DNA of 43,118 nt from a bacterium. GTDB lineage: Bacteria > Patescibacteriota > JACMRA01. The position numbers and the translations under genes are program-made. Shown here piece by piece: positions 11,074-41,635 of the stretch. How positions within the stretch are numbered: position 1 is the first letter of the stretch; each line of letters starts with the position of its first letter. The stretch spans positions 1-43,118 of the forward strand of contig JAYUKQ010000086.1 of NCBI GenBank assembly GCA_043764315.1, read 5' to 3'. The notes beneath the pieces were generated by a model that saw only the letters and a list, made by a program, of their open reading frames with translations, was not told where the DNA came from and did not search any database.

Positions 11074-12569
11074 AAAAGGAGGTAATCCATCCACAGCTTC
11101 CGCTACGGATGCCTTGTTACAACTTAAATTCAGTCACTGAGCTAGCCTTCCATTCCAAAACTGAAATTTTGGGGCTCTCTCAATTCCCAAACCTTGATGG
11201 GCAGTGTGTACAAAACCCGAGAACGTATTCACCGCGACGAGGCTGATTCGCGATTACTAGCAATTCCAGCTTCATGGAGTCGGGTTGCAGACTCCAATCC
11301 GTACTTAGGGAGGTTTTAATAGATTTGCTTGGCCTTGCGACTTAGCTGTCTCGTTGTACCTTTCCCATTGTATCATGTGTGTAGCCCTGGACATAAGGGA
11401 CACGCTGATCTGACGTCATTCTATCCTTCCTCCCGTTTAAACACGGGCAGTCTCTCTAGACATTAAATAACTAGAGATTAGAGTTGCGCTCGTTTTCGGA
11501 CTTAACCGAACATCTCACGACACGAGCTGACGACGACCGTGCATCACCTGTGAAAGCTTCTAGCAAGCTAGATCATCAGTGTTTCCACCTTTTACTACTA
11601 ACATGTCAAGCCCAGGTAAGGTTCCTCGCTTAATATCGAATTAAACCACATGATCCACTGCTTGTGCGGGTTCCCGTCAATTCCTTTGTGTTTTAGCCTT
11701 GCGGCCGTACTATACAGGCGGAGTGCTTATAGCGTTAGCTTTTGCCACTAAATCAGATTGATTTGACCTAATAGCAAGCACTCATCGTTTAGGGCGTGGA
11801 ATACTAGGGTATCTAATCCTATTCTCTCCCCACGCTTTCGTCCTAGCAGTGTCAGGATACACCCAGTAGTCTGCTTTCGCTTTTGGCGTTCCTTTACATA
11901 TCAACGGATTTCACCCCTACTTGTAAAGTTCCAACTACTTTTTTGTACCTCAAGTCTAGCAGTTTCCGAACCAAACACGCAGTTAAGCTGCGGTCTTTCA
12001 ATTCGGACATACTAAACAACCTTCGGAACGCTTTACGCCCAATAAAACCGGATAACGCTTGGAGCCTCTGTATCACCGCTGCTGCTGGCACAGAGTTTGC
12101 AGCTCCTTTCTAGAGATCTCTTCAAAATTTAGTAGATCTCCACAGAAGTTTACGACCCGAGGGCCTTCATCCTTCACGCGGCATGGCTCGGTCAGGGTTT
12201 CCCCCATTGCCAAAAATTCCCCACTGCTGCCACCCGTAGGTGTCTGGGCCGTGTCGCAGTCCCAGCGTGCCTAATCGTCCTCTCAGACTAGGTACCCGTC
12301 TTAGGCTTGGTGAGCTATTACCTCACCAACTACCTGATAGGAAATAGGCCTTGTCAATAGCGGTTTACACCTTTAATCTTACGATCACATTTGGGATTAC
12401 CTAGTCTTTCAACTAGCTATACCAAACTATTGGGAAGTTCCTATTTATTACTCACTCGTTTGCCGCTGATCATTTTTATGTATTGCTACACAAGAAATCA
12501 CCGCTCGACTTGCATGTGTAAAGCCTGCCGCCAGCGTTAATCCTGAGCTAGGATCAAACTCTCAAAAAG
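11074..12569 (-). rRNA. rrs: 16S ribosomal RNA, about 1.5 kb, no large insertion
   Basis: Reverse complement begins ...gagtttgatcctagctcaggattaacgctggcggc and ends ...gtaacaaggcatccgtagcggaagctgtggatggattacctcctt. Conserved blocks are present throughout. Ends are good to a few nt. Confidence 0.95.
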
Positions 12570-12863: not shown

Positions 12864-13904
12864 ATGTCATTTTATAAAATATTAGTTCTTGGTGCTGGTG
12901 GACACGGTATTTTATCTCTTAGGAATCTGTTTGAAGAGGAAAAAATTGATTTTAAAATATTTTATAATACAACTGATTGGGGAGGTAGTTACGGTCTGTG
13001 GGGAAGATTATTGGAATATAATAATCACGAATTAAATCAAAAACTACACAATCAAAAACTTCCAGTACTACCTTTTGCTGATCCTAATAAATTAATTTGT
13101 TTTTACTTAGAAAAATCTGGGATTGATCCAAAATTGTATTTTGACTTTAGATCAAACAATCAAAAAGAACATGTGTCTGCAATTAATAAAATGTTTGATA
13201 AAATAAAATTGACCAATGATCAAAAATCAAAATTTTTAGAGTATTTTGGTATAGTTTGGTATTATTATAAGCAAAATAGATTTAATTTGGAGTATGAGAG
13301 CAAATTATGTCTGGGTTATATATTTCAGTCTTTTTTATATTCAAGCCTTGGTGGTATGAAAGCCTGGAATACATTTTATCAAAATATTGGAATATTACCA
13401 AAAAACATTGAGATATGTTTTAGTGGCGATGATAGAAATATATTAGCTGGTAATGATATAAGCCTAGAGCGTGTTATTGGGGAAGACAAATTAGACACAT
13501 ATCAAAGTCCGATACTTCCTAACAGTTTGGAACTACTAGATATATACCATCAAACAATAAACTGCAATCGATTAACCGTAGATTGCGTTGAGCAATCAGA
13601 TTTGATTATAATACCAAATGGTTCAGTAGCAAATTGGTTACCACTAACAAACGACTCAACATTAAAAACAACATTAAAAAGTAAAAAAATTGTTTGGATA
13701 ACCAATCCTTACCGCACTCACAACGAATTGATAAACCCTAACTATTACCTATATTTGAAAGAAAATGATTTTAACTCTATTCCACTTGCTCAATTAAATG
13801 GAATTAAAAACAAAGGTTTTTGGAATGTACTGGAACAAGATAAACAAGGCAAATATAAACCAAAAGATATAGCAAATCAAATTTTAAAAATAATCGAAGA
13901 ATAA
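12864..13904 (+). CDS. YvcK/CofD (UPF0052) family protein, divergent
   Basis: KILVLGAGGHGILSLRNL and NTTDWGGSYGLWGRL correspond to YvcK IGGGTGLS and ADDGGSSGRLR. DLIIIPNGSVANWLPL corresponds to ADVIVIGPGSLYTSVLP. Confidence 0.7.
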   Translation: MSFYKILVLGAGGHGILSLRNLFEEEKIDFKIFYNTTDWGGSYGLWGRLLEYNNHELNQKLHNQKLPVLPFADPNKLICFYLEKSGIDPKLYFDFRSNNQKEHVSAINKMFDKIKLTNDQKSKFLEYFGIVWYYYKQNRFNLEYESKLCLGYIFQSFLYSSLGGMKAWNTFYQNIGILPKNIEICFSGDDRNILAGNDISLERVIGEDKLDTYQSPILPNSLELLDIYHQTINCNRLTVDCVEQSDLIIIPNGSVANWLPLTNDSTLKTTLKSKKIVWITNPYRTHNELINPNYYLYLKENDFNSIPLAQLNGIKNKGFWNVLEQDKQGKYKPKDIANQILKIIEE

Positions 13905-13917
13905 AACTGTATTAATT

Positions 13918-14523
13918 ATGCCCACAGCATCTCTTAGAGCTCCAGAAGGTTATCACCTTGTGAATATAATGCAATCTTGTATGCATGTAAGGTTAGACTT
14001 ATTTTTAAAATTTGGAGGTCATCCAGGGGCAGCTGGCTTTACATTGATAAAAGAAAATTTGATAGAGGCTAAACATTTGATGAGTTCACAAGTCAAGCCA
14101 AATACACAAGAACCAATTAAGTTTAATCAAAACATTGAAACACCAAAGGAATGGAATAATTTAATATGTAAAAAAAATATAATCTGGATAAAAATACAAA
14201 ATTTAGATATTAATCTACTGAATCAAGTTTTTGAGTTAGATCCATTTGGTCAAGACTTCCCTTTACCTAGTTTTGGTTTCAAATTAAGCCAAGAAGATAT
14301 TTTGAATTATTCTTTAATGGGAAACGATAATCAACATTTAAAAATAGAAGTTAATGGTTTCAAAATATTATATTTTAATGCTGATAAAAAAGTAATTGAA
14401 TACGTAAAAAATCCAATTGAAATGATGTGGATAATTGCCAAACCTAATAAAAGTAGTTTTAGACAAAAAACTTCTGTGGATTTGATTTTAGAAAAATTTT
14501 ATGTGAACAAACAAACTGAATGA
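13918..14523 (+). CDS. RecJ-like DHHA1 and C-terminal domain only (N-terminally truncated recJ remnant or stand-alone domain)
   Basis: ASLRAPEGYHLVNIMQSC...LFLKFGGHPGAAGFTL matches the RecJ GSxRS...FGGHxxAAG DHHA1 signature. The DHH catalytic domain is absent, and only 13 nt separate this ORF from the upstream gene. Confidence 0.6.
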   Translation: MPTASLRAPEGYHLVNIMQSCMHVRLDLFLKFGGHPGAAGFTLIKENLIEAKHLMSSQVKPNTQEPIKFNQNIETPKEWNNLICKKNIIWIKIQNLDINLLNQVFELDPFGQDFPLPSFGFKLSQEDILNYSLMGNDNQHLKIEVNGFKILYFNADKKVIEYVKNPIEMMWIIAKPNKSSFRQKTSVDLILEKFYVNKQTE

Positions 14524-23091: not shown

Positions 23092-23637
23092 ATGTCCCGT
23101 GTTGGTAAAAAAGTAATACAAATCGATCAAAGCGTTAAGTTTGAACTTAATGGAAATCAAGTCGTTGTATCTGGTCCGAAAGGCTCCATTTCTGCGGCTA
23201 TATTAGATTTCATTATTATCGAAAACGCTGAAAACAGTCTACAAATTTCTGTTAAAGATCCTAAAAGTAAATTCCAAAAAGCTGTGTGGGGAACAACTAG
23301 AGCTATTTTAGCAAATATGGTAACTGGTGTAACAACTGGTTTTACCAAAGAGGTAGAATTAAATGGTGTAGGTTTCAAAATGGAACTTTCTGGTCAAACT
23401 TTGACTGCTTACATTGGTTTCTCTCATCCTGTTAAATTAGACGTTGATCCCGCAATCAAACTAGTTTTGAACAAAAATCTTCTTACTGGAACTTCTCATG
23501 ACAAACAACTATTGAATAACTTCTTTGGTAATTTGCATGAGATGAAACCCTGTGACCCTTATAAGCACAAAGGATTCAAGTTCCCAGGTCGATTCTACAT
23601 CAAGAAAGTTGGTAAAAAAGGTGGTAAAGGTAAGTAG
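23092..23637 (+). CDS. rplF: 50S ribosomal protein L6
   Basis: MSRVGKKVIQI...VVVSGPKGSIS...NGVGFK...GFSHPV follows the L6 pattern. Confidence 0.9.
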   Translation: MSRVGKKVIQIDQSVKFELNGNQVVVSGPKGSISAAILDFIIIENAENSLQISVKDPKSKFQKAVWGTTRAILANMVTGVTTGFTKEVELNGVGFKMELSGQTLTAYIGFSHPVKLDVDPAIKLVLNKNLLTGTSHDKQLLNNFFGNLHEMKPCDPYKHKGFKFPGRFYIKKVGKKGGKGK

Positions 23638-23765
23638 AGTTAAAATACAAAATTAAAAATGCAAATCTATTTGGTAATTTAATTTTTATTATCTATCTTT
23701 TCATTGTTAGTTTTTTATCTTAATCTCAACAAACTTAATCAATTTTTAGTTTATATTCATATTCT

Positions 23766-24089
23766 ATGTCTACTCAAGCAATTAGAAAACGAAGAACTAC
23801 TCAAAAAATTACTTACTTCTATCCAGTCTTGACTGTGTCTCGATCCAATAAGAATATTATGGTTCAAGTTATTAGTCCAGAAACTAGACAAGTAGTTTTT
23901 ACAGCTAGTTCTAACAAATTAACTGGTATTAGCAAATCAGATCAATCTATTTCGATAGGTAAGACTGTGGCTGATTGGTTAAAAACTAACAATATGCCTC
24001 AAGCAGTTTATAACCGTAATGGTTACCTTTACCATGGTAGAGTAAAAGCTGTTGCTGAAGCTGTTCGTGAAGCTGGGATTATCATTTAA
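23766..24089 (+). CDS. rplR: 50S ribosomal protein L18
   Basis: The C-terminus NRNGYLYHGRVKAVAEAVREAGI matches L18 DRGGYxYHGRVKALADAAREAGL. Confidence 0.92.
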   Translation: MSTQAIRKRRTTQKITYFYPVLTVSRSNKNIMVQVISPETRQVVFTASSNKLTGISKSDQSISIGKTVADWLKTNNMPQAVYNRNGYLYHGRVKAVAEAVREAGIII

Positions 24090-24221
24090 TCCCTTTCTTT
24101 TTTAAATTTAATTATGCAGAAGCTTTAATTCTTATTTTACCTTAAGTTTGATTGTCAATCTGAATAAATTTCAGAATCCATTAAATTATAACTTAATAAT
24201 AAAAGAGTTAAACCCTCCGCT

Positions 24222-24977
24222 ATGACACATATTTTTATGTCAGAAGTACAAATAACCCCAACTCCAACAACTCCAGTAGTTTCAACTGCTCCAAAACCAG
24301 TTCAAAAAACTGAACGTACAGGACAAGCTAGTGGCCAAAATAATGGTCAACGTCGATCCTTTAACAGAACTCGTGATGGTAATTCATCCGCTCCTAGTGC
24401 AACTGGAGGAAGTCGTTTTGGTCGCCCTGGTCAAGGTGATCGCCGAAATAGTAGTGATCGCCCAAGTGGTCGCAACGATAGAGCTGCCGCTGGTCGCCCT
24501 GGTGGTCGCAATGATCGCCGCCAAAAAGAAAAAGAAGAACCCTTGTATGAATCTAAAGTGATCGAAGTTCGTCGCGTTACTCGTGTAGTAAAAGGTGGTA
24601 AAAGAATGAGATTTTCAGCTTTAGTAGTTGTCGGTGACCGAAATGGTAAAGTAGGATTTGGTTTGAAAAAAGGTTTAGATTTTGCAGATGCTGTTGCTAA
24701 GGCAACAAAAAAAGCAACCAATTCAGTTATTAAAGTTAGCTTGGATAAGAACAAATCTATCTCCTTTACTTCAAACACAAAACACAAATCTGCGGAAATA
24801 TTTCTCAAACCAGCTACTCATGGTACTGGATTAATTGCTGGAGGTTTTGTGCGTCCAGTTCTAGAACTGGCAGGTGTGGAAAATGTTTACTCTAAGATCA
24901 ACAGAACTCGTAACAAGATTCCTGGTGTTCAATGTGTAATCAAAGCTCTTCAAAAATACTCCAATAACAAGCAATAA
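24222..24977 (+). CDS. rpsE: 30S ribosomal protein S5 with a roughly 100-aa low-complexity N-terminal extension
   Basis: The core VIEVRRVTRVVKGGKRMRFSALVVVGDRNGKVGFGLKKG is canonical S5. It is preceded by an R/G/N/D/S/P-rich segment containing the repeat GRNDR...GRNDR. Confidence 0.93.
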   Translation: MTHIFMSEVQITPTPTTPVVSTAPKPVQKTERTGQASGQNNGQRRSFNRTRDGNSSAPSATGGSRFGRPGQGDRRNSSDRPSGRNDRAAAGRPGGRNDRRQKEKEEPLYESKVIEVRRVTRVVKGGKRMRFSALVVVGDRNGKVGFGLKKGLDFADAVAKATKKATNSVIKVSLDKNKSISFTSNTKHKSAEIFLKPATHGTGLIAGGFVRPVLELAGVENVYSKINRTRNKIPGVQCVIKALQKYSNNKQ

Positions 24978-24996
24978 TTATAACTAATATTTTATT

Positions 24997-25590
24997 ATGT
25001 CTTCAAATATAGAATTAATCAAAACTATTCGTTACAAAACTAACTTGTCTTTCAAAGATATCAAAAACGCCATTGAAGCTCTAAACACAGATAATGAGGT
25101 GGAAATTATTGATTATTTAAAGAAGCAAGGGGTTCTAAAATCTGCAGCAAAAGAAGGTCGTGAAGCAGCTCAAGGTTCTATATTCACGTATACTCACGAA
25201 ATGAGAATTGGTGTAATGATAGAAATCAAATGTGAAACCGACTTTGTAGCTCGTGGTGAAGACTTCCAACAATTAGGTAAAGAGCTTTGTTTACATATCG
25301 CCGCTTATCAACCAAAATTCGTTTCCGCAGAACAAGTATCTAAAGAATATATCGAAAGTGAACTTGCCTTAGCCAAAACTAAATTGGAAGAAGAGGGCAA
25401 AGCCAGTGAAATGATTACCAAAATATTGGAGGGTAAAAAATCTAAAATGGCTAAAGAGGTTTCACTTCTATCTCAACCTTTCTTGATGAATATGGAAATT
25501 TCAGTCGATGAACACGTTCGTCAATTAATGGCAAAATCAGGTGAAAACATACAAGTTAGCAAGTTTGTGGTGTATAACCTAAATGGGTAG
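24997..25590 (+). CDS. tsf: Elongation factor Ts, short 197-aa form
   Basis: UBA-like N-terminus (IKTIRYKTNLSFKDIKNAIEAL) and the core IGVMIEIKCETDFVARGEDFQ. Confidence 0.9.
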   Translation: MSSNIELIKTIRYKTNLSFKDIKNAIEALNTDNEVEIIDYLKKQGVLKSAAKEGREAAQGSIFTYTHEMRIGVMIEIKCETDFVARGEDFQQLGKELCLHIAAYQPKFVSAEQVSKEYIESELALAKTKLEEEGKASEMITKILEGKKSKMAKEVSLLSQPFLMNMEISVDEHVRQLMAKSGENIQVSKFVVYNLNG

Positions 25591-25595
25591 AATAT

Positions 25596-25842
25596 ATGTC
25601 TGAAAAATTACCAGAAATAGCTGTTGGTTATATTCAAGTTGACTATACCCCCCCCCACATCAGAACTTGAACAGATAAGAAAAAATATTGGAGCTGCCAC
25701 TGATTCACAGATAGTTTTTGCTGAAAATCCTATTATGCCCGAAGGTAACACTGTTGCTTTTGGAACTGCACCAGATGGAACACCAAAAAGTGGAGCTATT
25801 TTTGTAATTGGTGAACCCAACAGAATTGGTAGAACAGATTAA
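25596..25842 (+). pseudogene. Small ORF (about 81 codons if repaired) split by a frameshift at a C9 homopolymer (25648-25656)
   Basis: The ATG at 25596 reads MSEKLPEIAVGYIQVDYTPP and then stops at 25668. The +1 frame continues ...PPPTSELEQIRKNIGAATDSQ... to 25842. Removing one C, or adding two, fuses them. Confidence 0.55.
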
Positions 25843-25883
25843 AAGTAATAGAACACAATTTTTAACAAATTAACAACTCAAAA

Positions 25884-26168
25884 ATGTCTCTTACTGTAGA
25901 TTGTCAAAATCGAGTCGTAACTGGCCACGCTGTTCGAAAACTTCGTCGTGAAGGAATCATGCCAGCTGTCGTATACGGCGCCAAAATGGAACCTCTAAAT
26001 ATTCAACTCAATCTTAATGCCTTTGTAAAAATTGCTAAGTTATCTGGCAAAACTCAACCAATCACTCTTGATGTTGAAGGAAAGACTTTTTTAGTCAAAA
26101 TCCACCAAGCTGATCTTCATCCTGTGCGTGATACCTTCCGACACATTGACTTCTTAATAGTCAAATAA
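25884..26168 (+). CDS. rplY: 50S ribosomal protein L25, short 94-aa form
   Basis: [16 protein letters not shown] and ...HIDFL match the L25 signatures. Same length as E. coli L25. Confidence 0.85.
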
Positions 26169-26194
26169 TTACAAATATTAATTTTAAGACGAAT

Positions 26195-26632
26195 ATGCTT
26201 ACTCTATCCAATCTACCAAAAACAGTCATCAAACAATCTCGGAGAATCGGTCGTGGTATCGGTTCAGGTAAAGGTAAAAATGCTGGTCATGGTCACAAAG
26301 GTCAAATCAAACGAAATGGTGGTCGCAAGGCAACTGTAGGTTTTGAAGGTGGTCACGCCTCTTTGATCAAAAGAATCCCAAAATATCGTGGTTACAATAA
26401 TCCAGGTAGACTAAATCTCGATATGGTTACTTTGAACATTGGTGTAATTGCTAGATTTTTTGAAACAGGTGAAATGGTTAATATTGCAACTTTGCTGTTA
26501 AAAGACTTAGCCAACAAACACACTAAAAAAGTTAGAATTATCAAAAGTGGTGATGATCGAGGTAAAAAATTTTCTTTCGGTGAAGAAGTTTATCTAACCA
26601 AAGGTGCTAAAGACTTTTCAATAAACAATTAA
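26195..26632 (+). CDS. rplO: 50S ribosomal protein L15
   Basis: [22 protein letters not shown]...[15 protein letters not shown] is the L15 signature. Confidence 0.93.
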
Positions 26633-26634
26633 TT

Positions 26635-26769
26635 ATGAATTTTGAATCATTGATTAGTTCTAATATTGAAGAAGAAGGTACAGTTGCCAAAGATAATTCT
26701 TGTGTAAATAGTACCTGCTCAACATCTGGTTGTTTAGAAACACTAAAATATGGATTTGAAACATATTAA
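26635..26769 (+). CDS. 44-aa acidic, Cys/Ser/Thr-rich peptide (candidate precursor or signal peptide); below the ORF-track cutoff
   Basis: MNFESLISSNIEEEGTVAKDNSCVNSTCSTSGCLETLKYGFETY. The ATG is 2 nt after the rplO stop, and the ORF overlaps the next ORF's ATG by 20 nt. Its core CVNSTCSTSGC aligns with CLDSTFSNCDC of the peptide at 35531. Confidence 0.5.
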   Translation: MNFESLISSNIEEEGTVAKDNSCVNSTCSTSGCLETLKYGFETY

Positions 26770-27532
26770 GCAGTCAATCTTACAAGCTTCTCTTTCTATA
26801 GAGAGGTGTTTTGTTAATAGTAATTTTAAAATTAACCCTAATCAAGTTGTTAATAATTTCTTTAGTGACGATTTTAGTTACACTAGTTTTAACAATATCT
26901 GCTTTGAATTAGCACCTAACGAAACGCTATTGATTTTTAAATTAAGATCTAGGAGTTCTTTTAGTTTGCAGTTAATACATATGATGAGTCATCTTGATGG
27001 ATCACTTTTGGAAGTTGGAGCAAACATTCAAACAGTTGGTCATTTGGTTAAGTTTCATTTCCTAGCTGATTACTTTTTTTCTCACAAAAAAATAAATTAC
27101 TACTGTAGGGATCTGTTCTGGTTTAGTCTTGAAAGGATAGTATGGAATCATTTAAAATTTTATACCAACAATAAGGATAATTCAAGATTAGTTGAGTTAT
27201 TTTTGTGCTTATGTTTATTGCAAGATTTGGTACTTAAGAAAGATAAATGGCGACTAAAACATTTGATTAAAATTGTAAAAAATAAAATAACGTCAAAAAA
27301 CCAAACTAAAATTGAATTATCAGGAATGGTTGCAGTTATATATCGCTCTATCAAAGATGAATTATACTCTAAAGGTGATTATTCTTTGAAACATAAAAAG
27401 AAATTAAAAAACTTTCTAAAAAAACAATCTAAATATTGGAAGCAAATATGTCTCGGTGTTGAACAAAATTGCAAATATGAGGATGTGTTAGATTTAATTT
27501 TACTTCAGTTGAATACATATATCAAAAAATAA
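26750..27532 (+). CDS. Uncharacterised 260-aa protein, paralog of 35716..36525 (shared LIHxxxHxD motif)
   Basis: LIFKLRSRSSFSLQLIHMMSHLDGSLLEV aligns with LSLKLITRKEIELFLIHALAHSDAPIEV in the other copy. Further on, ELFLCLCLLQD plus a K-rich helix aligns with ELWAFCFMIDI plus a K-rich helix. Confidence 0.65.
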   Translation: MDLKHIKQSILQASLSIERCFVNSNFKINPNQVVNNFFSDDFSYTSFNNICFELAPNETLLIFKLRSRSSFSLQLIHMMSHLDGSLLEVGANIQTVGHLVKFHFLADYFFSHKKINYYCRDLFWFSLERIVWNHLKFYTNNKDNSRLVELFLCLCLLQDLVLKKDKWRLKHLIKIVKNKITSKNQTKIELSGMVAVIYRSIKDELYSKGDYSLKHKKKLKNFLKKQSKYWKQICLGVEQNCKYEDVLDLILLQLNTYIKK

Positions 27533-27634
27533 TCACATGTTTACAATGCAAGTGTTGTATTAGACATTACAATGAATTAAAGCTATTTTCTTGACAAAAA
27601 TGCTGTAACTTGTTTAACTAACTAAGTTGTCTTG

Positions 27635-27711
27635 GGGTGTGTAGCTCAGCTGGTTAGAGCACTTCACTGATAATGAAGAGGTCACAGGTCCGAGTCCTGT
27701 CACACCCACCA
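27635..27711 (+). tRNA. tRNA-Ile (anticodon GAT), CCA encoded
   Basis: Acceptor stem gggtgtg / cacaccc. D-arm gctcagctggttagagc. Anticodon arm cttca-ctGATaa-tgaag. T-arm acagg-tccgagt-cctgt. Discriminator a followed by cca. A TTGACA at 27591-27596 lies upstream. Confidence 0.9.
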
Positions 27712-27834
27712 CACCTAAAATTCTTATGGATTATTGCTCCAATTTATTACTAGTAAATAACTTACAATAGGATAAAACTCTGGATTAATAGTTCTTTTTT
27801 ATTATATCGACTTTTACGAATAATTTTTTTATAT

Positions 27835-28764
27835 ATGTCTTCCAACTTATTTTTAAATAACCACCCTGAAGTCAAAGCTAATTTGGTCAAGAATTCTGAT
27901 CAGAACTATACTTTAATAATTGAACCTTTGTATCCTGGATACGGTTACACAATTGGCAATTCTCTGCGTAGAATATTTCTATCGTCTATTCCAGGTTTTG
28001 GTATAACTAAAATCAAAATTAACGATTTGACTCATGAATATCAACCAGTTGCTGGTATTGTAGAAGATGCTTTGCAGATTATACTTAATCTTAAGATGGT
28101 TCGTGCTAGAATCAAAACTGATGAAGAAAGAGTTACAATGTCTTTTTCTAGAAATACCGCTGGTAATATCACAGCTGCTGAATTTAAGTCTGCTCATGCT
28201 GAAATTATCAACAAAGACCTTCATATTTGTACTTTGAATAAAGGTTCTAAACTTGACATTGAAATTGAAATTTCTCGAGGTGTTGGTTATCTTTCCATGG
28301 ATGATGTGAATCTAAGTGATAACAAAGATGCTCGTCAAATTTTGGTTGATGCTGTTTTTTCTCCAGTAACTAACGTCTTACTTAACGTATCTAAGGTTAG
28401 AGTAGGTGACAAAACCAATTTTGATAAAGTTGAAATCAATTTTGATATTGATGGTTCAGTTGATGCTATTGAAGTTGTAGACTATGCTTTGGATATAATG
28501 GCTAATATAATTTCTCAATCAAGAGCTAGTTTATCACTAAAAGTTTCTGATACTTCTCTCTATTCAAATACTCCAACTCACTCACCAGCTGCATTAAACA
28601 GCGAAGATGAAATTGATTTGCCAGAAAAAATTCGCAAGATACTAATTAAAAATGAGATACTTACAAACACTCAACTAAAAAATAGAATTGAAGAAGTTCG
28701 TGATTTTACTGGAATCGGAGCTAAAGCCTTGGAAGAAGTTCAAAATTACCTAAACAATCTATAA
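27835..28764 (+). CDS. rpoA: DNA-directed RNA polymerase alpha subunit
   Basis: N-terminal domain IEPLYPGYGYTIGNSLRRIFLSSIPG. The C-terminal domain carries a helix-hairpin-helix (FTGIGAKALEEV). Confidence 0.93.
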   Translation: MSSNLFLNNHPEVKANLVKNSDQNYTLIIEPLYPGYGYTIGNSLRRIFLSSIPGFGITKIKINDLTHEYQPVAGIVEDALQIILNLKMVRARIKTDEERVTMSFSRNTAGNITAAEFKSAHAEIINKDLHICTLNKGSKLDIEIEISRGVGYLSMDDVNLSDNKDARQILVDAVFSPVTNVLLNVSKVRVGDKTNFDKVEINFDIDGSVDAIEVVDYALDIMANIISQSRASLSLKVSDTSLYSNTPTHSPAALNSEDEIDLPEKIRKILIKNEILTNTQLKNRIEEVRDFTGIGAKALEEVQNYLNNL

Positions 28765-29466: not shown

Positions 29467-30048
29467 ATGAACCACGAGTCACACTTTAGGATTCGCACAG
29501 TCCAAAATAAATACAAAAAAAATCATATTAGTAGTCTTATTTCGGGTCGCAAATTCAAAGTTGCTTTATCAGTTGTTGGAGTTTATGCAATAGTTGGTGC
29601 AGGCGTTGGTTGGTTTTTGATAACACCGAATTCTGATCTTGCAAGTGCTGACAAATTTCAAAATGATACTAGCTTAATTGTTAGATTATCTGAAGAAAAA
29701 ACAGAAGGTGATAATGTTAGTCTCAAACTAACTATGGATAATACCAACAAAGATATTGAAATTGTTGAAGTAATAAGCGACTTTTACACTTCTGAAAATA
29801 ATATTAGCTGGCAATCAATGACTCCAATTGTAGCTGGTAATATATCTAGTAATCTGAATCAATTCAATAACCAATCTTTTGTGAATCTTAATCCACTTTC
29901 AGCTGGTGAATCAATGCAATATCTAGTTAAAGGTAAAATTAAAAATAAACAAGCCAAAAATATCACTGTCATGAGTCATATCAAATACTCCAAGAACGAA
30001 AATCCGTTTGAAGTTAGTTCTAACAAAGTTTTCTTTAGTTTTGAATAA
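29467..30048 (+). CDS. Membrane-anchored protein with a beta-rich extracytoplasmic domain, function unknown
   Basis: Basic N-terminus followed by one TM helix (FKVALSVVGVYAIVGAGVGWFLI). The remainder has alternating beta-like composition. Confidence 0.55.
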   Translation: MNHESHFRIRTVQNKYKKNHISSLISGRKFKVALSVVGVYAIVGAGVGWFLITPNSDLASADKFQNDTSLIVRLSEEKTEGDNVSLKLTMDNTNKDIEIVEVISDFYTSENNISWQSMTPIVAGNISSNLNQFNNQSFVNLNPLSAGESMQYLVKGKIKNKQAKNITVMSHIKYSKNENPFEVSSNKVFFSFE

Positions 30049-30171
30049 TATTTTTCATCTTTTTAGGTGATTTTTTTTGAATCAATATTGATTTGTCATT
30101 TGACTTTGGATGTGTAATAATTAGTTTAAGTCTTTTACTTTTTATAATTAAAATACGATTTAAGATTCAAT

Positions 30172-30606
30172 ATGATTACAATTTTACGCACACATAGAAT
30201 AGGTTCCAAGTTTTATGATTTAAAAGAGTTAGCAACAACACCAGAATCAGGAACAGAACCTTTTAATCAACAGGAGTTGGGTGCATTTTTAAAAAAGTTA
30301 AAATCAATGAACTTAATTGGATATAAAGGTGACTTTATTTACTCTCATGTACGTAAAGTTGATACTGTTAATAGTGAAACAGGTGAAAAATGTGTTATAG
30401 AACTTCCAGTGTTTGTATCTGGTGATATTTGGATTAGAGCATCTCCCTTAGGTGGTGGGAGAGTTACGAGTAATCAATTCAACGGAGCAAAGACTCTTGA
30501 AGAAATATACAAACTTGTTAATGGTCGTGAGCAATCTTATGGTACAGATTTAACAGGTGATAGTTTATCTGAATTAAGAAATGCTGCAAGTTCACTAATA
30601 TCCTAA
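30172..30606 (+). CDS. Hypothetical protein
   Basis: 144-aa ORF with typical composition. No motif recognised. Confidence 0.45.
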   Translation: MITILRTHRIGSKFYDLKELATTPESGTEPFNQQELGAFLKKLKSMNLIGYKGDFIYSHVRKVDTVNSETGEKCVIELPVFVSGDIWIRASPLGGGRVTSNQFNGAKTLEEIYKLVNGREQSYGTDLTGDSLSELRNAASSLIS

Positions 30607-30704
30607 AAAAACTCAAAAAGTTAATTCACCTAATTAGTGATTTTTTTGTGAAATCTAGTTTTAACCTTGACTTTTTTGAGTGACTAAAATAGCTTTATTA
30701 GACA

Positions 30705-31391
30705 ATGATCAAATTTATTAACGTTTCCAAAAAGTACTCCAGTAAAGATGAAGAAAGTCTCAAAGAAATTAATCTTAGCATAATTGCTGGTGAATTCGTA
30801 TCTATAATTGGTCACTCGGGTGCAGGCAAATCTACTTTACTCAAGCTTTTGACTGGTGAAATCAAACCCGAAATTGGCGGAGCTGTGTGGATCGAGGATA
30901 TTAGAGTCGACAAAATCAAACCAGAATATTTGCCTTATCTTAGGCGACGAATTGGCGTTGTCTTTCAAGATTACAAACTTCTGTACACTAGAACTATCTT
31001 TGAAAATGTATCTATCGCCATGGAAGTTGCTGGAGCGACACCTCAAGATATTAAACGTGATGTACCAAAGCTTTTGGACCTTGTAGGTCTGACTGATAAG
31101 TATAATCATTATCCTAACCAACTTAGCGGTGGTGAAAAACAAAGAGTTTCTATTGCTCGAGCTTTGTCACATAACCCAATTTTACTCATTGCTGATGAGC
31201 CTACAGGTAACCTCGACAAAGTTAACGCTTACGAAATTATTACTTTACTTCTGAAGATCAACAATTCAGGAACTACAGTTATTCTTTCAACTCATGATCA
31301 AGAAATTATCGACAAACTCAAAAAACGTGTAATTACTCTTCAAAAAGGTAAGGTCGTTCTCGATCAACCTGTTGGAATGTACTATATTTAG
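30705..31391 (+). CDS. ftsE: FtsE-like ABC ATPase
   Basis: 228 aa. Walker [12 protein letters not shown], signature [15 protein letters not shown] and Walker [13 protein letters not shown]. Size and N-terminus ([11 protein letters not shown]) are typical of FtsE. No ftsX follows. Confidence 0.7.
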
Positions 31392-31559
31392 TTAATAATT
31401 AAAAATACAAAATTAATAATATTGGCAATCAATACTTTTAGGTTATTAGTTTTTAGGTTATTAAACACGTTTAAGTTGATAAATTAATATTCTACAACAA
31501 CTCAAATACAAAAACACAACTCTTCATTTTAAATTCAATATTTATACAAATACACAAAT

Positions 31560-32462
31560 ATGTCTGCACTTTCAATAATCAACCTCAAAAAACAATATGG
31601 AGACAATGGTACAATAGCAATCGATGGAATCAACCTAGAGGTTGAAGAAGGTGATTTTTTTGCTTTGCTTGGAGCTAATGGAGCTGGTAAAACTACAATT
31701 ATTGGCATTGTTAGTTCACTAGTTAACAAGACTTCAGGTCAAGTCAAAGTGTTTGGTAACGATATTGATAAAGATTTTAGTCTCGCCAAAAGATTTGTAG
31801 GTGTCGTACCGCAGGAATTTAATTTTAGTATCTTTGAAAAAGTTCTCGATATAGTAGTTAATCAAGGTGGTTATTATGGAATTCCAAAATCAGTTGCCGA
31901 GCCGAGAGGTGTTGAGATTCTCACTAGACTTGGACTTGGTGACAAATTACAATCTGTGGCTAGGGTTCTGTCAGGAGGAATGAAACGCCGTTTGATGATT
32001 GCCAGAGCCTTGATTCACCAACCCAGACTTCTTATTCTGGATGAGCCAACTGCAGGTGTGGATTTGGAACTTAGGCTTGGAATGTGGGAATACCTCAAAG
32101 AGCTCAATCATCAAGGTGTTACTATAATTCTAACTACTCACTACTTGGAAGAAGTTGAACAACTGTGCAATAACATGGCAATTATCAAATCAGGCAAAAT
32201 CGTCACTCAAGGTTCTGTTCATCAACTACTTAGAAGTGTGGAAGAAGAGACTTATCAATTCGATGTTAGTAATTCTAATGGTTTGGAAAAAGTTCTTGGA
32301 GGTGTAATAATAGATGAAAATACTTTTGAAATCAAAGTTAATCAAAAACTAGGCTTGAATCATATTCTCAAACAACTTGATGATAATGGAGTTAAAGTAT
32401 TTGGAATTAGACCCAAAGGTAATCGTGTAGAAGAGCTGTTTATGAGTGTTATTAAGAATTAA
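31560..32462 (+). CDS. ABC transporter ATP-binding protein (ABC-2 / DrrA-NatA-like)
   Basis: Walker A GANGAGKTT, signature LSGGMKRRLMIARAL and Walker B LLILDEPTAGVD, plus a C-terminal regulatory domain. No permease gene is adjacent. Confidence 0.85.
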   Translation: MSALSIINLKKQYGDNGTIAIDGINLEVEEGDFFALLGANGAGKTTIIGIVSSLVNKTSGQVKVFGNDIDKDFSLAKRFVGVVPQEFNFSIFEKVLDIVVNQGGYYGIPKSVAEPRGVEILTRLGLGDKLQSVARVLSGGMKRRLMIARALIHQPRLLILDEPTAGVDLELRLGMWEYLKELNHQGVTIILTTHYLEEVEQLCNNMAIIKSGKIVTQGSVHQLLRSVEEETYQFDVSNSNGLEKVLGGVIIDENTFEIKVNQKLGLNHILKQLDDNGVKVFGIRPKGNRVEELFMSVIKN

Positions 32463-32551
32463 AAAACGATTGACACTAACCCAAAAATAAGCAATAGTGT
32501 CTATGTATTTGGACTATTCCAAATTAATTTTGAAAAACTAAGAATTATTTT

Positions 32552-33184
32552 ATGATACCACAAGCAATGGAAGCAATTACCGTCAATGGACACTCAACAG
32601 AAAAAGATACTAGGGGGGTACAGAATTCAGAAGGAGTAACAAACCCTAATAATCCACTTGAAATAGCACACCAGCTACATAAAGCAAGGCAGGGTACTGA
32701 ATCTCAATCAGTTACATTTGATCAAAAAACTACTTGTGAGAATGAAGTGCGATGGACTGATGGAGTATCGTTCGCACCAAAAGGTAATGTTATCGAAAAA
32801 TACGCAGGTGCTTGCAATACAGATGGAGTAGTGTGGACACAACAAACAATAGGTGAAACACCAGCTATGGCGGACATGAAGACATCAAAGAGTGCTATAA
32901 TTTTCTTTAACTCTGGTAAAACGTTAAATATGCCAGATGGAACCAAAATTGGTTTTAATGTAACCGGAGGAAGTTTTACAAAAGGAATGTATTCTCCCGA
33001 TGGATCTTCTAGTTATCAACCTTCTACTCAACAAGAAATGATTTCATATTTTCAACAATTTATATCCAACAAATTCGACTTATCTTTGACAGAGGGTGGA
33101 ATTTTAAAATTTAATCCACGACAAAACACAATATTAGATCAAAGACAAGATGGAATTCGCAGATTAGATATCACCTCACCATAA
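32552..33184 (+). CDS. Hypothetical protein
   Basis: 210-aa ORF. No signal peptide or motif recognised. Confidence 0.45.
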   Translation: MIPQAMEAITVNGHSTEKDTRGVQNSEGVTNPNNPLEIAHQLHKARQGTESQSVTFDQKTTCENEVRWTDGVSFAPKGNVIEKYAGACNTDGVVWTQQTIGETPAMADMKTSKSAIIFFNSGKTLNMPDGTKIGFNVTGGSFTKGMYSPDGSSSYQPSTQQEMISYFQQFISNKFDLSLTEGGILKFNPRQNTILDQRQDGIRRLDITSP

Positions 33185-33277
33185 CTTTTCTAAGATTTTT
33201 TACATCACACCAACCCTAAACAAGGGGTTTTTGTTTTGGCTTGACCTAAGAATCATAATTAGACACTATTGAAATCA

Positions 33278-34027
33278 ATGTCTATAATCAGTTTGAGTTC
33301 CAACAATATTAAGATTAAGCCCTACAATGGGGCTTTTTTGAGTGAGATTATTCACTTTGAAAAGAATCAAGAAATCAAATTATTGGGTAGAGTTGTATCT
33401 TTAAGTTTGGATTGTGTAACTGTTCAACCTCTGGGCAATATTCCTTCAATTAATTTGTCCGAGTTAAGAACTCAACCAACTCAAAAACCTATTCAAGTCA
33501 ATATGTCGCCAACGATAATAGGTCGCAAATTCAATTCCGTTGGTAATCCACTTGATGGATTAGGGGAGATTTTGGAGATTGAAACTGGTGATTTGATAAG
33601 TGTTGAGAAAGTTTTGGCATATTCAAAAATTGAAAATATTAGCCAAAGTGAATTATACGAAAATTTGGCTTATTTGACTCAGGACAACTTAGTTCTTGTG
33701 ATCGTTGGTCAAGCTAATCTTATTAGAGACAGAATATTACAATCTCATTTTCTAACCCAAATTAGTGTACAGTATGAAGTTGGTAATCTATGGACTGATT
33801 GGATAATTGCCTTTGAACAAGCTGCAATTGTAGCTCATTATATCGCATCGGTATTGAATTTTGAAGTAATTATCATACTTGATGGTGACCAACAATATAA
33901 AGATTCCATATCTCGTCAGAATCAATTTTACACCAAATTTTTAACTGATTTACCAGTAGAAATTACTTATCCAGATATTGTTTCTAGCGGCGATGTAGAT
34001 TCTAAAATCCAACTGTGGTTAGTTTAG
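33278..34027 (+). CDS. Degenerate F1/V1/FliI-type ATPase alpha/beta-family protein lacking the Walker A P-loop
   Basis: N-terminal beta-barrel-like segment followed by VNMSPTIIGRKFNSVGNPLDGLGEI (family motif V-x-VG-x-x-LLGR-x-x-N-x-x-G-x-P-x-DG-x-G). Further on, LVLVIVGQ... and VIIILDGDQQY correspond to YVAIGQK... and LIIYDDL. No GxxxxGKT motif is present. Only about 250 aa, versus roughly 450-510 for normal subunits. Confidence 0.5.
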   Translation: MSIISLSSNNIKIKPYNGAFLSEIIHFEKNQEIKLLGRVVSLSLDCVTVQPLGNIPSINLSELRTQPTQKPIQVNMSPTIIGRKFNSVGNPLDGLGEILEIETGDLISVEKVLAYSKIENISQSELYENLAYLTQDNLVLVIVGQANLIRDRILQSHFLTQISVQYEVGNLWTDWIIAFEQAAIVAHYIASVLNFEVIIILDGDQQYKDSISRQNQFYTKFLTDLPVEITYPDIVSSGDVDSKIQLWLV

Positions 34028-35479: not shown

Positions 35480-35510
<31 letters not shown>

Positions 35511-35530: not shown

Positions 35531-35656
35531 ATGAGACAAAATAAGAGTATGTCTGAAGGCTTTTATCCAACACTAGAAAATTTAACAGAAGTAGAATCAA
35601 GTTTTACACAGAATCCAGAATGTTTAGATTCAACATTTAGTAACTGTGACTGTTAA
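35531..35656 (+). CDS. 41-aa acidic, Cys/Ser/Thr-rich peptide, homolog of the 26635 peptide; below the ORF-track cutoff
   Basis: MRQNKSMSEGFYPTLENLTEVESSFTQNPECLDSTFSNCDC. The C-terminal core aligns with CVNSTCSTSGC of peptide 1 (C1, S4, T5, S7 and C11 identical). Confidence 0.5.
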   Translation: MRQNKSMSEGFYPTLENLTEVESSFTQNPECLDSTFSNCDC

Positions 35657-35689
35657 GATTATTAGTGAATCAGTTTTGTAAGTTCTATT

Positions 35690-35713
35690 AAGCCCTAGTG
35701 GCTTTATTTTTTT
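35690..35713 (+). terminator. Short hairpin plus T-run between the peptide gene and its partner gene (possible leaky terminator or attenuator)
   Basis: aagcc (35690-35694) / ggctt (35700-35704), then tattttttt, ending 2 nt before the ATG at 35716. Confidence 0.4.
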
Positions 35714-35715
35714 AT

Positions 35716-36525
35716 ATGTTTAAGCTAACCCATTACTTGTACAACAGATTCAACACGTACCCAATACGTAGTCAAAATAGATTGACTAAAAGAATGATCA
35801 GAAACTATATATATAATAATCATTTATCGATCTTAAATGACAAGTCTTATTCTCACTTTTTATCTCTAAAACTTATTACCAGAAAAGAGATAGAATTATT
35901 TTTGATTCACGCTTTAGCTCACTCAGATGCCCCAATTGAAGTGTCTTTTAGAGAAATAGATTTTGGAGCAAAGTCTAATACAATAATAGATTTCTTGTGG
36001 TTTTTTACCAACGTAAAACCAACCAAAGTTGAAACTAAAGTTCTCTTGGAGTTAATCAAAATAGTTGTTAAAAGAAATTTTAAAATAAATTATTCTGATA
36101 AATCAATTAAGAGAGCTGATTTGGTTGATAAATCTAAATACATAACTGAATTGTGGGCTTTTTGTTTTATGATAGACATAATAATTAGTGAGTCATATAT
36201 TTGTTCATTGCAAAAACTAAAAATAAGAAAAAAATTGATTAAAAAACTCAAATCTAATCATTTCAAAGTTCCATTAAATTTTAGTTATTTTGCTTACTCT
36301 TTTGTAAATTCTTTTGCTATACATGATAATCCTAATAATTTAGTTAATTTCAAAACTGAACACTTTATTCCAATATTACAGCATAAGTTTAACACTCATT
36401 CGTTCACCAAATTACAACAAGTTGGTCAGAGTGTCATTGATAATGGAGTTGAAGGTAGTTACAATGCTACAGCGAATATAGTGTATAGTCACATACTAAA
36501 CCTTCTTGGAAGTGGTGATATTTGA
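35716..36525 (+). CDS. Uncharacterised 269-aa protein, paralog of 26750..27532 (shared LIHxxxHxD motif)
   Basis: See 26750..27532. ATG 35716 (MFKLTHY) is preferred over the GTG at 35698. Confidence 0.65.
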   Translation: MFKLTHYLYNRFNTYPIRSQNRLTKRMIRNYIYNNHLSILNDKSYSHFLSLKLITRKEIELFLIHALAHSDAPIEVSFREIDFGAKSNTIIDFLWFFTNVKPTKVETKVLLELIKIVVKRNFKINYSDKSIKRADLVDKSKYITELWAFCFMIDIIISESYICSLQKLKIRKKLIKKLKSNHFKVPLNFSYFAYSFVNSFAIHDNPNNLVNFKTEHFIPILQHKFNTHSFTKLQQVGQSVIDNGVEGSYNATANIVYSHILNLLGSGDI

Positions 36526-37220: not shown

Positions 37221-40272
<3,052 letters not shown>

Positions 40273-40792: not shown

Positions 40793-40801
40793 TTGTTGAT
40801 T

Positions 40802-41635
40802 ATGTCTCAATATTCAACCCGAATTGTATTCAACCAGACAACACCTAAGCAAGGCTATGAACAGACAATTAATGAAGATTGCTCTAGGGTCTCAACTGAT
40901 TGTAATATAATTGCAATAGCTGATGGTGTCAGTTCTGCTGCTTATTCCAGAGATTGGGCTACCTTAATCTGTGATAGAGCAACTGATAACTTCCAAGAGT
41001 TCTCAACTGATGTTAATGAGTGGTTCCAAGTAACCCAAAAACAACACCTTACCAAAATGAGAGAGATTGTTCTTGATATGGTGAGCAGGGGTGAAGCTTT
41101 GCCTTTTTGGTGGGAACAAAAAATCCTAGTTGAAGGAGCTAGAGCCACTCTTATTGTCTGTGAAATAAAGCCAGAATCTCAAGAAGCTGTTATTCATAGT
41201 ATTGGAGATAGTTTTGCTTTTCATATTCTTAACGGTCAGATTATTGATCACAATACAATTTCTCATTGTCAGACTGGAAGTGTAGATAAAGGTAAATTAA
41301 CCCAAAAAATTATTACCAAAATTACAAAACTCCAAAAAAGTAGTCAGATATTATTGACCACAGATGCAATTGGCAATTATCTCTTGGAATACCCTAGCGA
41401 ACTTGAGGAATTACTTCAAGCTGGACTAGGGTCTGAGGCAGATTACTTCAACTTCGTAGATGTTAAGAGAGCTGAGAATAAGCTCAAAGATGATGATTGC
41501 ACTGTTGTTTTGATTGACTTGAAAGACGAACTAAAAAAATTCCAAAAGACACTAGAAACCCTAAAAAAAAAGCAAACAAAAAAAGTGTGTCGGAATCAGC
41601 TAACGAGACGATTCCCATTATTATCAATTAACTAA
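40802..41635 (+). CDS. PP2C-family Ser/Thr phosphatase-like protein
   Basis: IIAIADGVSS, IHSIGDSFAF, LLTTDAIGNYL and DDDCTVVLIDL correspond to the PP2C metal-binding Asp motifs. Confidence 0.7.
   Translation: MSQYSTRIVFNQTTPKQGYEQTINEDCSRVSTDCNIIAIADGVSSAAYSRDWATLICDRATDNFQEFSTDVNEWFQVTQKQHLTKMREIVLDMVSRGEALPFWWEQKILVEGARATLIVCEIKPESQEAVIHSIGDSFAFHILNGQIIDHNTISHCQTGSVDKGKLTQKIITKITKLQKSSQILLTTDAIGNYLLEYPSELEELLQAGLGSEADYFNFVDVKRAENKLKDDDCTVVLIDLKDELKKFQKTLETLKKKQTKKVCRNQLTRRFPLLSIN

Follow-up and report, generated by a model that had tools for sequence, protein, structure and literature searches.

A duplicated, lineage-specific gene pair encoding a short acidic peptide and a basic, predicted helical protein in a Patescibacteria genome

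We analysed a 43,118-nt stretch of DNA (the window; GenBank assembly GCA_043764315.1, contig JAYUKQ010000086.1, positions 1 to 43,118, forward strand) from an ultra-small bacterium of the Patescibacteriota, lineage JACMRA01. Two cassettes on its plus strand, copy 1 (26635-27532) and copy 2 (35531-36525), were the subject of this study. In each of them, a small open reading frame (ORF) for an acidic peptide (pepA or pepB) is followed by a larger gene (A260 or B269). The best explanation is that a lineage-specific module of two genes is present here in two ancient, paralogous copies, each with a short acidic peptide and then a soluble protein of about 265 aa that is basic and predicted to be all-helical. 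Judged from its sequence, the module is very probably real and duplicated, and its peptides are probably translated. The acidic peptide with a conserved Cys/Ser/Thr loop and the co-duplicated basic helical partner point to a cognate peptide–protein relationship. The best single reading in our analysis was a precursor like those of ribosomally synthesized and post-translationally modified peptides (RiPPs) with a dedicated modifier or binder, and this reading is offered tentatively. The present status of the module is that of a well-defined orphan gene pair in a single clonal organism, with a function proposed from sequence.

A first-pass annotation of the window had described copy 2 as a 41-aa ORF at 35531-35656, a hairpin with a T-run at 35690-35713 and an ORF at 35716-36525, and all three were found in place. 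The small ORF, pepB (35531..35656, plus strand), has the exact translation MRQNKSMSEGFYPTLENLTEVESSFTQNPECLDSTFSNCDC and is called as a gene in public assemblies. It has an isoelectric point (pI) of 4.05, with seven acidic residues, two basic residues and three Cys, and its C-terminal core is CLDSTFSNCDC. An alternative start candidate is M7 (35549, ATGTC); pepB may begin there, since ATGTC is the context in which genes usually start here and the alignment with pepA is better. B269 starts 59 nt after the end of pepB (35716..36525, plus strand). It encodes a 269-aa orphan, which is basic (pI 9.7), soluble and predicted to be all-helical. The NCBI/ENA call (P0005) has the identical length of 269 aa, and another gene caller (P0001) placed the start at 35794, giving 243 aa. 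MAFFT aligned weakly similar N-terminal segments of B269 and A260 (MFKLTH/MDLKH and NRFNTYP/NSNFKINP), and this similarity favours the 269-aa form. The first 26 codons of B269 had a poor codon score (-0.28). A single frameshifted gene was ruled out for copy 2, as stops are present in all frames between pepB and B269. In the spacer between MurC and pepB, a perfect (TTGTT)x5.4 microsatellite lies at 35480-35506, 24 nt upstream of the pepB ATG. Slippage of this repeat could shift promoter spacing; its length was unchanged in all four other assemblies that span 35480-35506.

In copy 1, pepA (26635..26769, plus strand) encodes a 44-aa acidic peptide (pI 4.06) with three Cys, seven acidic and two basic residues and the core CVNSTCSTSGC. 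It starts 2 nt past the stop codon of the L15 gene and overlaps the start of A260 by 20 nt. A260 (26750..27532, plus strand) encodes the 260-aa paralogue of B269, which is also basic (pI 9.5) and predicted to be all-helical. The position after L15 is a usual one for Map or Adk, and A260 was also considered as a divergent form of either. This candidate was rejected, with no Pfam hit for A260 and nothing at that position in the relatives. One substitution in A260, C51Y (codon 51, 26900-26902), was observed on another contig in another assembly of the same organism, in a segment of A260 without a counterpart in B269. pepA was identical across all assemblies.

The first-pass annotation had proposed that the two loci are paralogous pairs, and the evidence for this is modest but consistent across both genes, with matching order, spacing, charge and Cys content. 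BLASTP alone missed the similarity of A260 and B269 (best high-scoring segment pair 19 bits, E 0.07, not significant). The similarity was detected by Smith-Waterman alignment with shuffling: the score was 72 against 40.5±6.7 for shuffled sequences, and it was reached by 3 of 1000 shuffles and by 2 of 2000 block shuffles that preserve local composition. In a set of 86 real proteins (at least 150 aa each) from the window and its relatives, A260 and B269 were reciprocal best hits (72 vs next-best scores of 54 and 58), and neither resembled the other orphans of the window. Their alignment is collinear and near full-length with 27% identity, and MAFFT and Smith-Waterman agree on it. Both proteins are soluble by hydropathy (maximum KD19 1.5), and their hydrophobic maximum lies at the same aligned position. 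No similarity between the cassettes was detected at the DNA level. The duplication is therefore old, and it is the protein level that is conserved. The His-x3-His-x-Asp motif was previously taken to suggest metal binding or catalysis. It is indeed conserved, and H77-x3-H81-x-D83 of A260 (within IHMMSHLD) is aligned with H65-x3-H69-x-D71 of B269 (within IHALAHSD). With only two sequences at 27% identity and 60 invariant columns, the motif carries little weight as a sign of catalysis, and its conservation is a lead, not evidence.

The peptides also resemble each other. The alignment score of pepA and pepB was 38 against 23.1±4.8 for shuffled sequences and was reached by 59 of 5000 shuffles. When all nine pairings of reading frames from the two upstream regions were compared, similarity was confined to that of pepA with pepB (39 vs at most 22). 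Of 329 background small ORFs, none scored as high against pepA and one scored as high against pepB. Both peptides share C-x-[ND]-S-T-x-S-x3-C, a C-terminal loop of 11 residues, while the N-terminal part has diverged. In six-frame translations of the window and ten loci of relatives (about 200 kb), the pattern C.[ND][ST][ST].[ST].{1,4}C occurred only in pepA and pepB. Their charge make-up and Cys count are identical, with three Cys per peptide vs a Cys content of 0.9% in core proteins. These results bear out the earlier description of differing leaders with a shared C-(V/L)-(N/D)-S-T-x-S...C core, in which conservation is stronger in the core than towards the N-terminus. The same description had called this the pattern expected of precursor pairs. 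It fits cognate paralogous pairs; as a sign of RiPP precursors it is weaker, since typical RiPP families conserve the leader rather than the core.

A hairpin with a U-tract just past the peptide ORF is common to both copies. In copy 2, it has 5 bp and a 5-nt loop (AAGCC-CTAGT-GGCTT, 35690-35704, plus strand). The tract TATTTTTTT comes next and runs to 35713, leaving 2 nt to the ATG of B269. The structure resembles a terminator, with 5 bp, 3 GC pairs and 7 T, and is weak. In copy 1, an 8-bp hairpin lies 17 nt past the pepA stop (26786-26807, plus strand), with GTTTTGTT reaching to 26815. Its energy was -10.3 kcal/mol, and 2 of 200 shuffles were as stable. Six terminator-like sites were observed in 11.5 kb, vs 3.9±2.2 expected. 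Some of the other sites are placed sensibly behind genes, after L28 and after the ORF at 32552-33184, and terminators made of a short hairpin and a T-run may well operate in this genome. A further terminator-like hairpin, AAGCCCTACAATGGGGCTT plus TTTT (33317-33335), lies inside the 5' end of the ORF at 33269-34027. It shares AAGCCCTA with the copy-2 hairpin, and its position just inside or before an orphan ORF recalls the cassettes.

The origin of the cassettes was examined by synteny in ten related loci, whose RpoA proteins are 35-58% identical to that of the window. Orthologues of the cassettes were absent from all ten loci, with no homologue of either protein or peptide. In five of five related genomes, tRNA-Ile(GAT) lies about 30-65 nt past L15 and RpoA comes after it, with no cassette. 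In the window, about 1 kb with pepA and A260 lies between L15 and tRNA-Ile. A cassette after MurC was found in none of the three relatives that keep MurC or the sequence following it (L003, L004 and L005); L006 and L007 gave no MurC match. Since L15, tRNA-Ile and RpoA are adjacent in the relatives and the cassettes are missing there, the cassettes are lineage-specific insertions. Flanking repeats and mobility genes were not found at either cassette.

The gene order around both insertion sites was also recorded. The order L6-L18-S5-Tsf-L25-L15-tRNA-Ile-RpoA is conserved in four relatives (L004-L007; RpoA 43-50% identical), and in L003 (RpoA 58%) only the L15-tRNA-Ile-RpoA end was confirmed. This order (23092-28764 in the window) is unusual: SecY, Adk, Map, IF1, L36, S13, S11 and S4 are missing from it between L15 and RpoA. 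In L005, an unrelated 304-aa orphan ORF (13163-14077) lies 16 nt past MurC, in the position of cassette 2; its Smith-Waterman scores with A260 and B269 were at shuffle level. This position behind MurC may act as a hotspot of accessory genes. Upstream of MurC, the stretch 29467-34027, which begins after a conserved 146-aa membrane protein, holds four ORFs that are orphans (of 193, 144, 210 and 252 aa) as well as two ABC ATPases that lack a permease. The relatives have only a HIT-like gene there, so that this block is a second lineage-specific one.

Homologues of the module were sought on a large scale. A word-indexed homology search of 5.8 billion protein clusters with B269, A260 and a profile of the peptides returned only themselves. 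The first-pass annotation had suggested a profile search for further copies; when 1.84 billion representatives were searched exhaustively with an HMMER profile, only the two partners themselves came up. Nothing was found for the cassette proteins in a scan of viral contigs. Pfam (E up to 10), NCBIfam, PHROGs and PADLOC gave nothing usable for the partners, and sequence and profile searches of the PDB were empty. The sole partner match in the domain and PDB searches was DUF1836, which was sub-threshold (E 0.02). AlphaFold2 with a two-sequence alignment predicted about 12 helices per partner, at a pLDDT of only 40 and 46. No RiPP, bacteriocin, toxin or defence domains were found in the module proteins. 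The earlier claim that the partner is a processing or immunity protein thus found no link in Pfam, NCBIfam, PHROGs, PADLOC, the PDB or Foldseek.

The module is an orphan, and its architecture is familiar. It resembles RiPP pairs such as those of class I/II lanthipeptides (nisA-nisB) in that its short ORF is precursor-like: the N-terminal part of the product is acidic, and the C-terminal core is rich in Cys, Ser and Thr. As in these systems, the partner gene is immediately downstream of the short ORF, and the copies are duplicated as cognate pairs. Ser/Thr and Cys occur together in the module cores, as in lanthipeptides. The hairpin and U-tract between the genes recall lantibiotic operons, in which attenuating terminators are known after the structural genes. 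In contrast to RiPP pairs, the module has no LanB/C/M/KC/L, YcaO, radical-SAM, MNIO or RRE domain; its partner is an orphan of 260-269 aa, and there is no protease or exporter. A lanthipeptide dehydratase/cyclase (LanB+LanC, LanM, LanKC or LanL) was present neither in the partners nor in ten scanned neighbours.

For the RiPP-like reading, we propose the following sequence of steps. The peptide would be translated, with pepA coupled to the highly expressed L15 gene. The cognate partner would bind the peptide and modify or hold its conserved Cys loop. The conserved His/His/Asp residues, together with one conserved Cys, would possibly form a metal or catalytic site. The hairpin and U-tract past each peptide ORF may lower the expression of the partner relative to the peptide. 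We consider it nearly an even question, leaning slightly to the negative, whether the partner acts on its peptide at all. That this action is a covalent modification of the RiPP type is possible and rather doubtful. The boldest form of the proposal is a new RiPP class, in which a Cys/Ser/Thr-loop peptide is matured, in two cognate pairs, by an unseen all-helical His/His/Asp enzyme without detectable relatives among public genomes and metagenomes. We regard this form as improbable.

Several results weigh against the RiPP-like reading. No modifying-enzyme, RRE, protease or exporter domain was detected in the partners or their neighbours. No leader protease, C39-domain exporter or permease was found near the cassettes among ten neighbouring proteins scanned; copy 2 has two ABC ATPases 3-5 kb upstream, and these lack a permease. 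The core is better conserved than the leader, the opposite of most RiPP families, and the host is of the Patescibacteria type, in which biosynthetic clusters are rare. There are no homologues, so no conservation pattern backs catalytic residues. The AlphaFold2 models were unusable (pLDDT 40.3 and 45.9), and Foldseek against the PDB was empty of meaningful matches (best E 1.2, TM at most 0.29; discarded). All public assemblies are clonal and, apart from A260 C51Y, identical over the cassettes; strain variation for dN/dS was sought across them, and none was found beyond this substitution. The codon score of pepB was ambiguous (-0.04), with 15% of spurious ORFs scoring as high. The copy-1 hairpin lies inside the A260 ORF (codons 13-20, or 13-22 with the T-tract), and no alternative in-frame A260 start was found in the hairpin region before the conserved block. 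The stability of the copy-2 hairpin was at chance level (-4.8 kcal/mol; 28 of 200 shuffles as stable), and the wider leader region was unstructured (z 0.06). The weak terminator described earlier between peptide and partner is thus present as located, and as a structure it is indistinguishable from a chance hairpin.

If the partner modifies or senses the peptide, A260 and B269 would represent a peptide-handling protein family without known relatives. The host belongs to a bacterial group that is thought to be almost devoid of secondary metabolism or signalling. If true, such modules can sit inside ribosomal-protein operons.

The charge and the insertion sites of the pairs also suit a toxin–antitoxin-like or antidote pair, in which the acidic peptide neutralises the basic protein by binding and the pair is an addictive or selfish insertion in essential operons. 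As in type II systems, a small acidic gene comes first and overlaps or abuts a larger basic one (pI 4.05 vs 9.5-9.7), with the 20-nt overlap of copy 1 as an example. A single small genome holds two divergent copies, and the module is multi-copy, rapidly diverging and accessory. Both copies are lineage-specific insertions into conserved gene strings, and their codon usage is unlike that of core genes. However, Pfam and PADLOC gave no toxin or antitoxin domain, and no known toxin or antitoxin fold was recognised. With 41-44 aa, the upstream product would be a very short antitoxin of type II; it lacks a DNA-binding domain, and the Cys-rich, conserved Cys/Ser/Thr loop is untypical of antitoxins. 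The missing flanking repeats and mobility genes also speak against a selfish insertion. We consider such a pair unlikely.

To a similar degree, we think it unlikely that one or both small ORFs are non-functional, that A260 and B269 are merely fast-evolving orphan paralogues, and that the similarity of the ORFs is residual or coincidental. The ambiguous codon score of pepB would allow this, and the starts of the small ORFs have no Shine-Dalgarno backing in this genome. ORFs of such length arose by chance in shuffled intergenic DNA with P 0.046 for copy 2 (an ORF of at least 41 codons in 4.6% of shuffles) and P 0.003 for copy 1. The codon score of pepB matches the atypical usage of the partners (A260 -0.04, B269 0.03), and that of pepA was coding-like (0.22) and was reached by none of 158 spurious ORFs. 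The joint improbability of length, frame-specific similarity, charge and Cys make-up and a unique motif argues against non-functional ORFs.

A signalling peptide with a cytoplasmic helical receptor, as in the RRNPP family (Rap-Phr, Rgg-SHP, PlcR-PapR), was also weighed. The C-terminal loop would then be the mature signal, and each pair would be a separate channel. Peptide length (41-44 aa), partner size and helical prediction are comparable with those of Rap-Phr, where the gene of a peptide of about 40 aa adjoins that of a helical protein of the cytoplasm. Several divergent cognate cassettes per genome with a conserved C-terminal part of the peptide are established features of Rap-Phr. Unlike these systems, the module places the peptide first, an order opposite to that of Rap-Phr, PlcR-PapR and ComR-ComS. 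Its peptides are acidic, with no secretion signal and no hydrophobic segment, and its partners are strongly basic, with neither an HTH nor a TPR domain matched in them. The hits that Foldseek gave to Rgg3 and RapI were meaningless (E at least 2.7, TM at most 0.25). A receptor pair of this kind seems distinctly unlikely.

The position of the hairpins raises the question of a regulatory upstream ORF, in which translation of a leader rich in Cys, Ser and Thr codons controls the hairpin and, by attenuation, the expression of the partner. A hairpin and U-run lie 17-34 nt past the stop of both small ORFs, and Cys, Ser and Thr codons are clustered near the ORF ends. However, the folds of the leader regions (131 nt and 141 nt) were not more stable than those of shuffles (z about 0), and neither an alternative nor an antiterminator pairing was evident. 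No Rfam family matched either leader region. The copy-1 hairpin is inside A260, and pepA overlaps the start of A260. The amino-acid similarity of the peptides reaches beyond the putative regulatory codons, and the partners are not recognisable as biosynthetic genes. Attenuation is in our estimate very unlikely. The classical reading as a bacteriocin with its immunity protein is disfavoured, because the peptides are acidic without an export leader (pI 4.05, GRAVY -0.3 and -0.8, no GG motif and no hydrophobic N-terminus, unlike class II bacteriocins) and the partners of 260-269 aa are large and soluble, unlike the small membrane immunity proteins of that class.

The window has a G+C content of about 32% and also encodes SecA, RpoC, UvrA, MurC and a rearranged ribosomal-protein string. 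The nearest public genomes are metagenome-assembled genomes of the Patescibacteria group, with RpoA identities of only 43-58%. The genetic code is table 11, with TGA rare as a stop (3 of 34); an altered code was ruled out, as large conserved genes are intact under table 11. Shine-Dalgarno sequences were found before none of about 30 window genes, although CCUCC is present at the 16S 3' end. Start codons are therefore not checkable in this way. The regions upstream of genes are rich in A/T, and a box resembling TATAAT often stands a few nt ahead of the ATG (e.g. the starts at 16365, 20952, 27835 and 34096), and ATGTC is the start context of many window genes. Gene starts of this kind suggest leaderless or Shine-Dalgarno-independent initiation.

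The 16S rRNA gene (11075-12569, minus strand) and the 23S rRNA gene (37221-40271, plus strand; a span of 3051 nt vs a 2925-nt model) are unlinked, with about 25 kb between them and on opposite strands. No 5S gene was found in the window. The 16S gene is directly upstream of rpoC, in the place expected for rpoB. At the window edge, an IS30-like transposase (HTH_38 and rve integrase core) occupies 167-1039. Only the C-terminal part of RecJ was recognisable at 12864-14523 (partial DHHA1 and RecJ_OB, 201 aa), preceded by a 346-aa ORF that Pfam did not match; the gene for RecJ may have been split, or its product may have diverged strongly. Immediately downstream of the 23S rRNA gene, a PP2C-type phosphatase is encoded, and next to it an 896-aa protein that matches kinases only faintly. 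These two lie at 40793-41635 of the window and downstream (L013 15272-18811).

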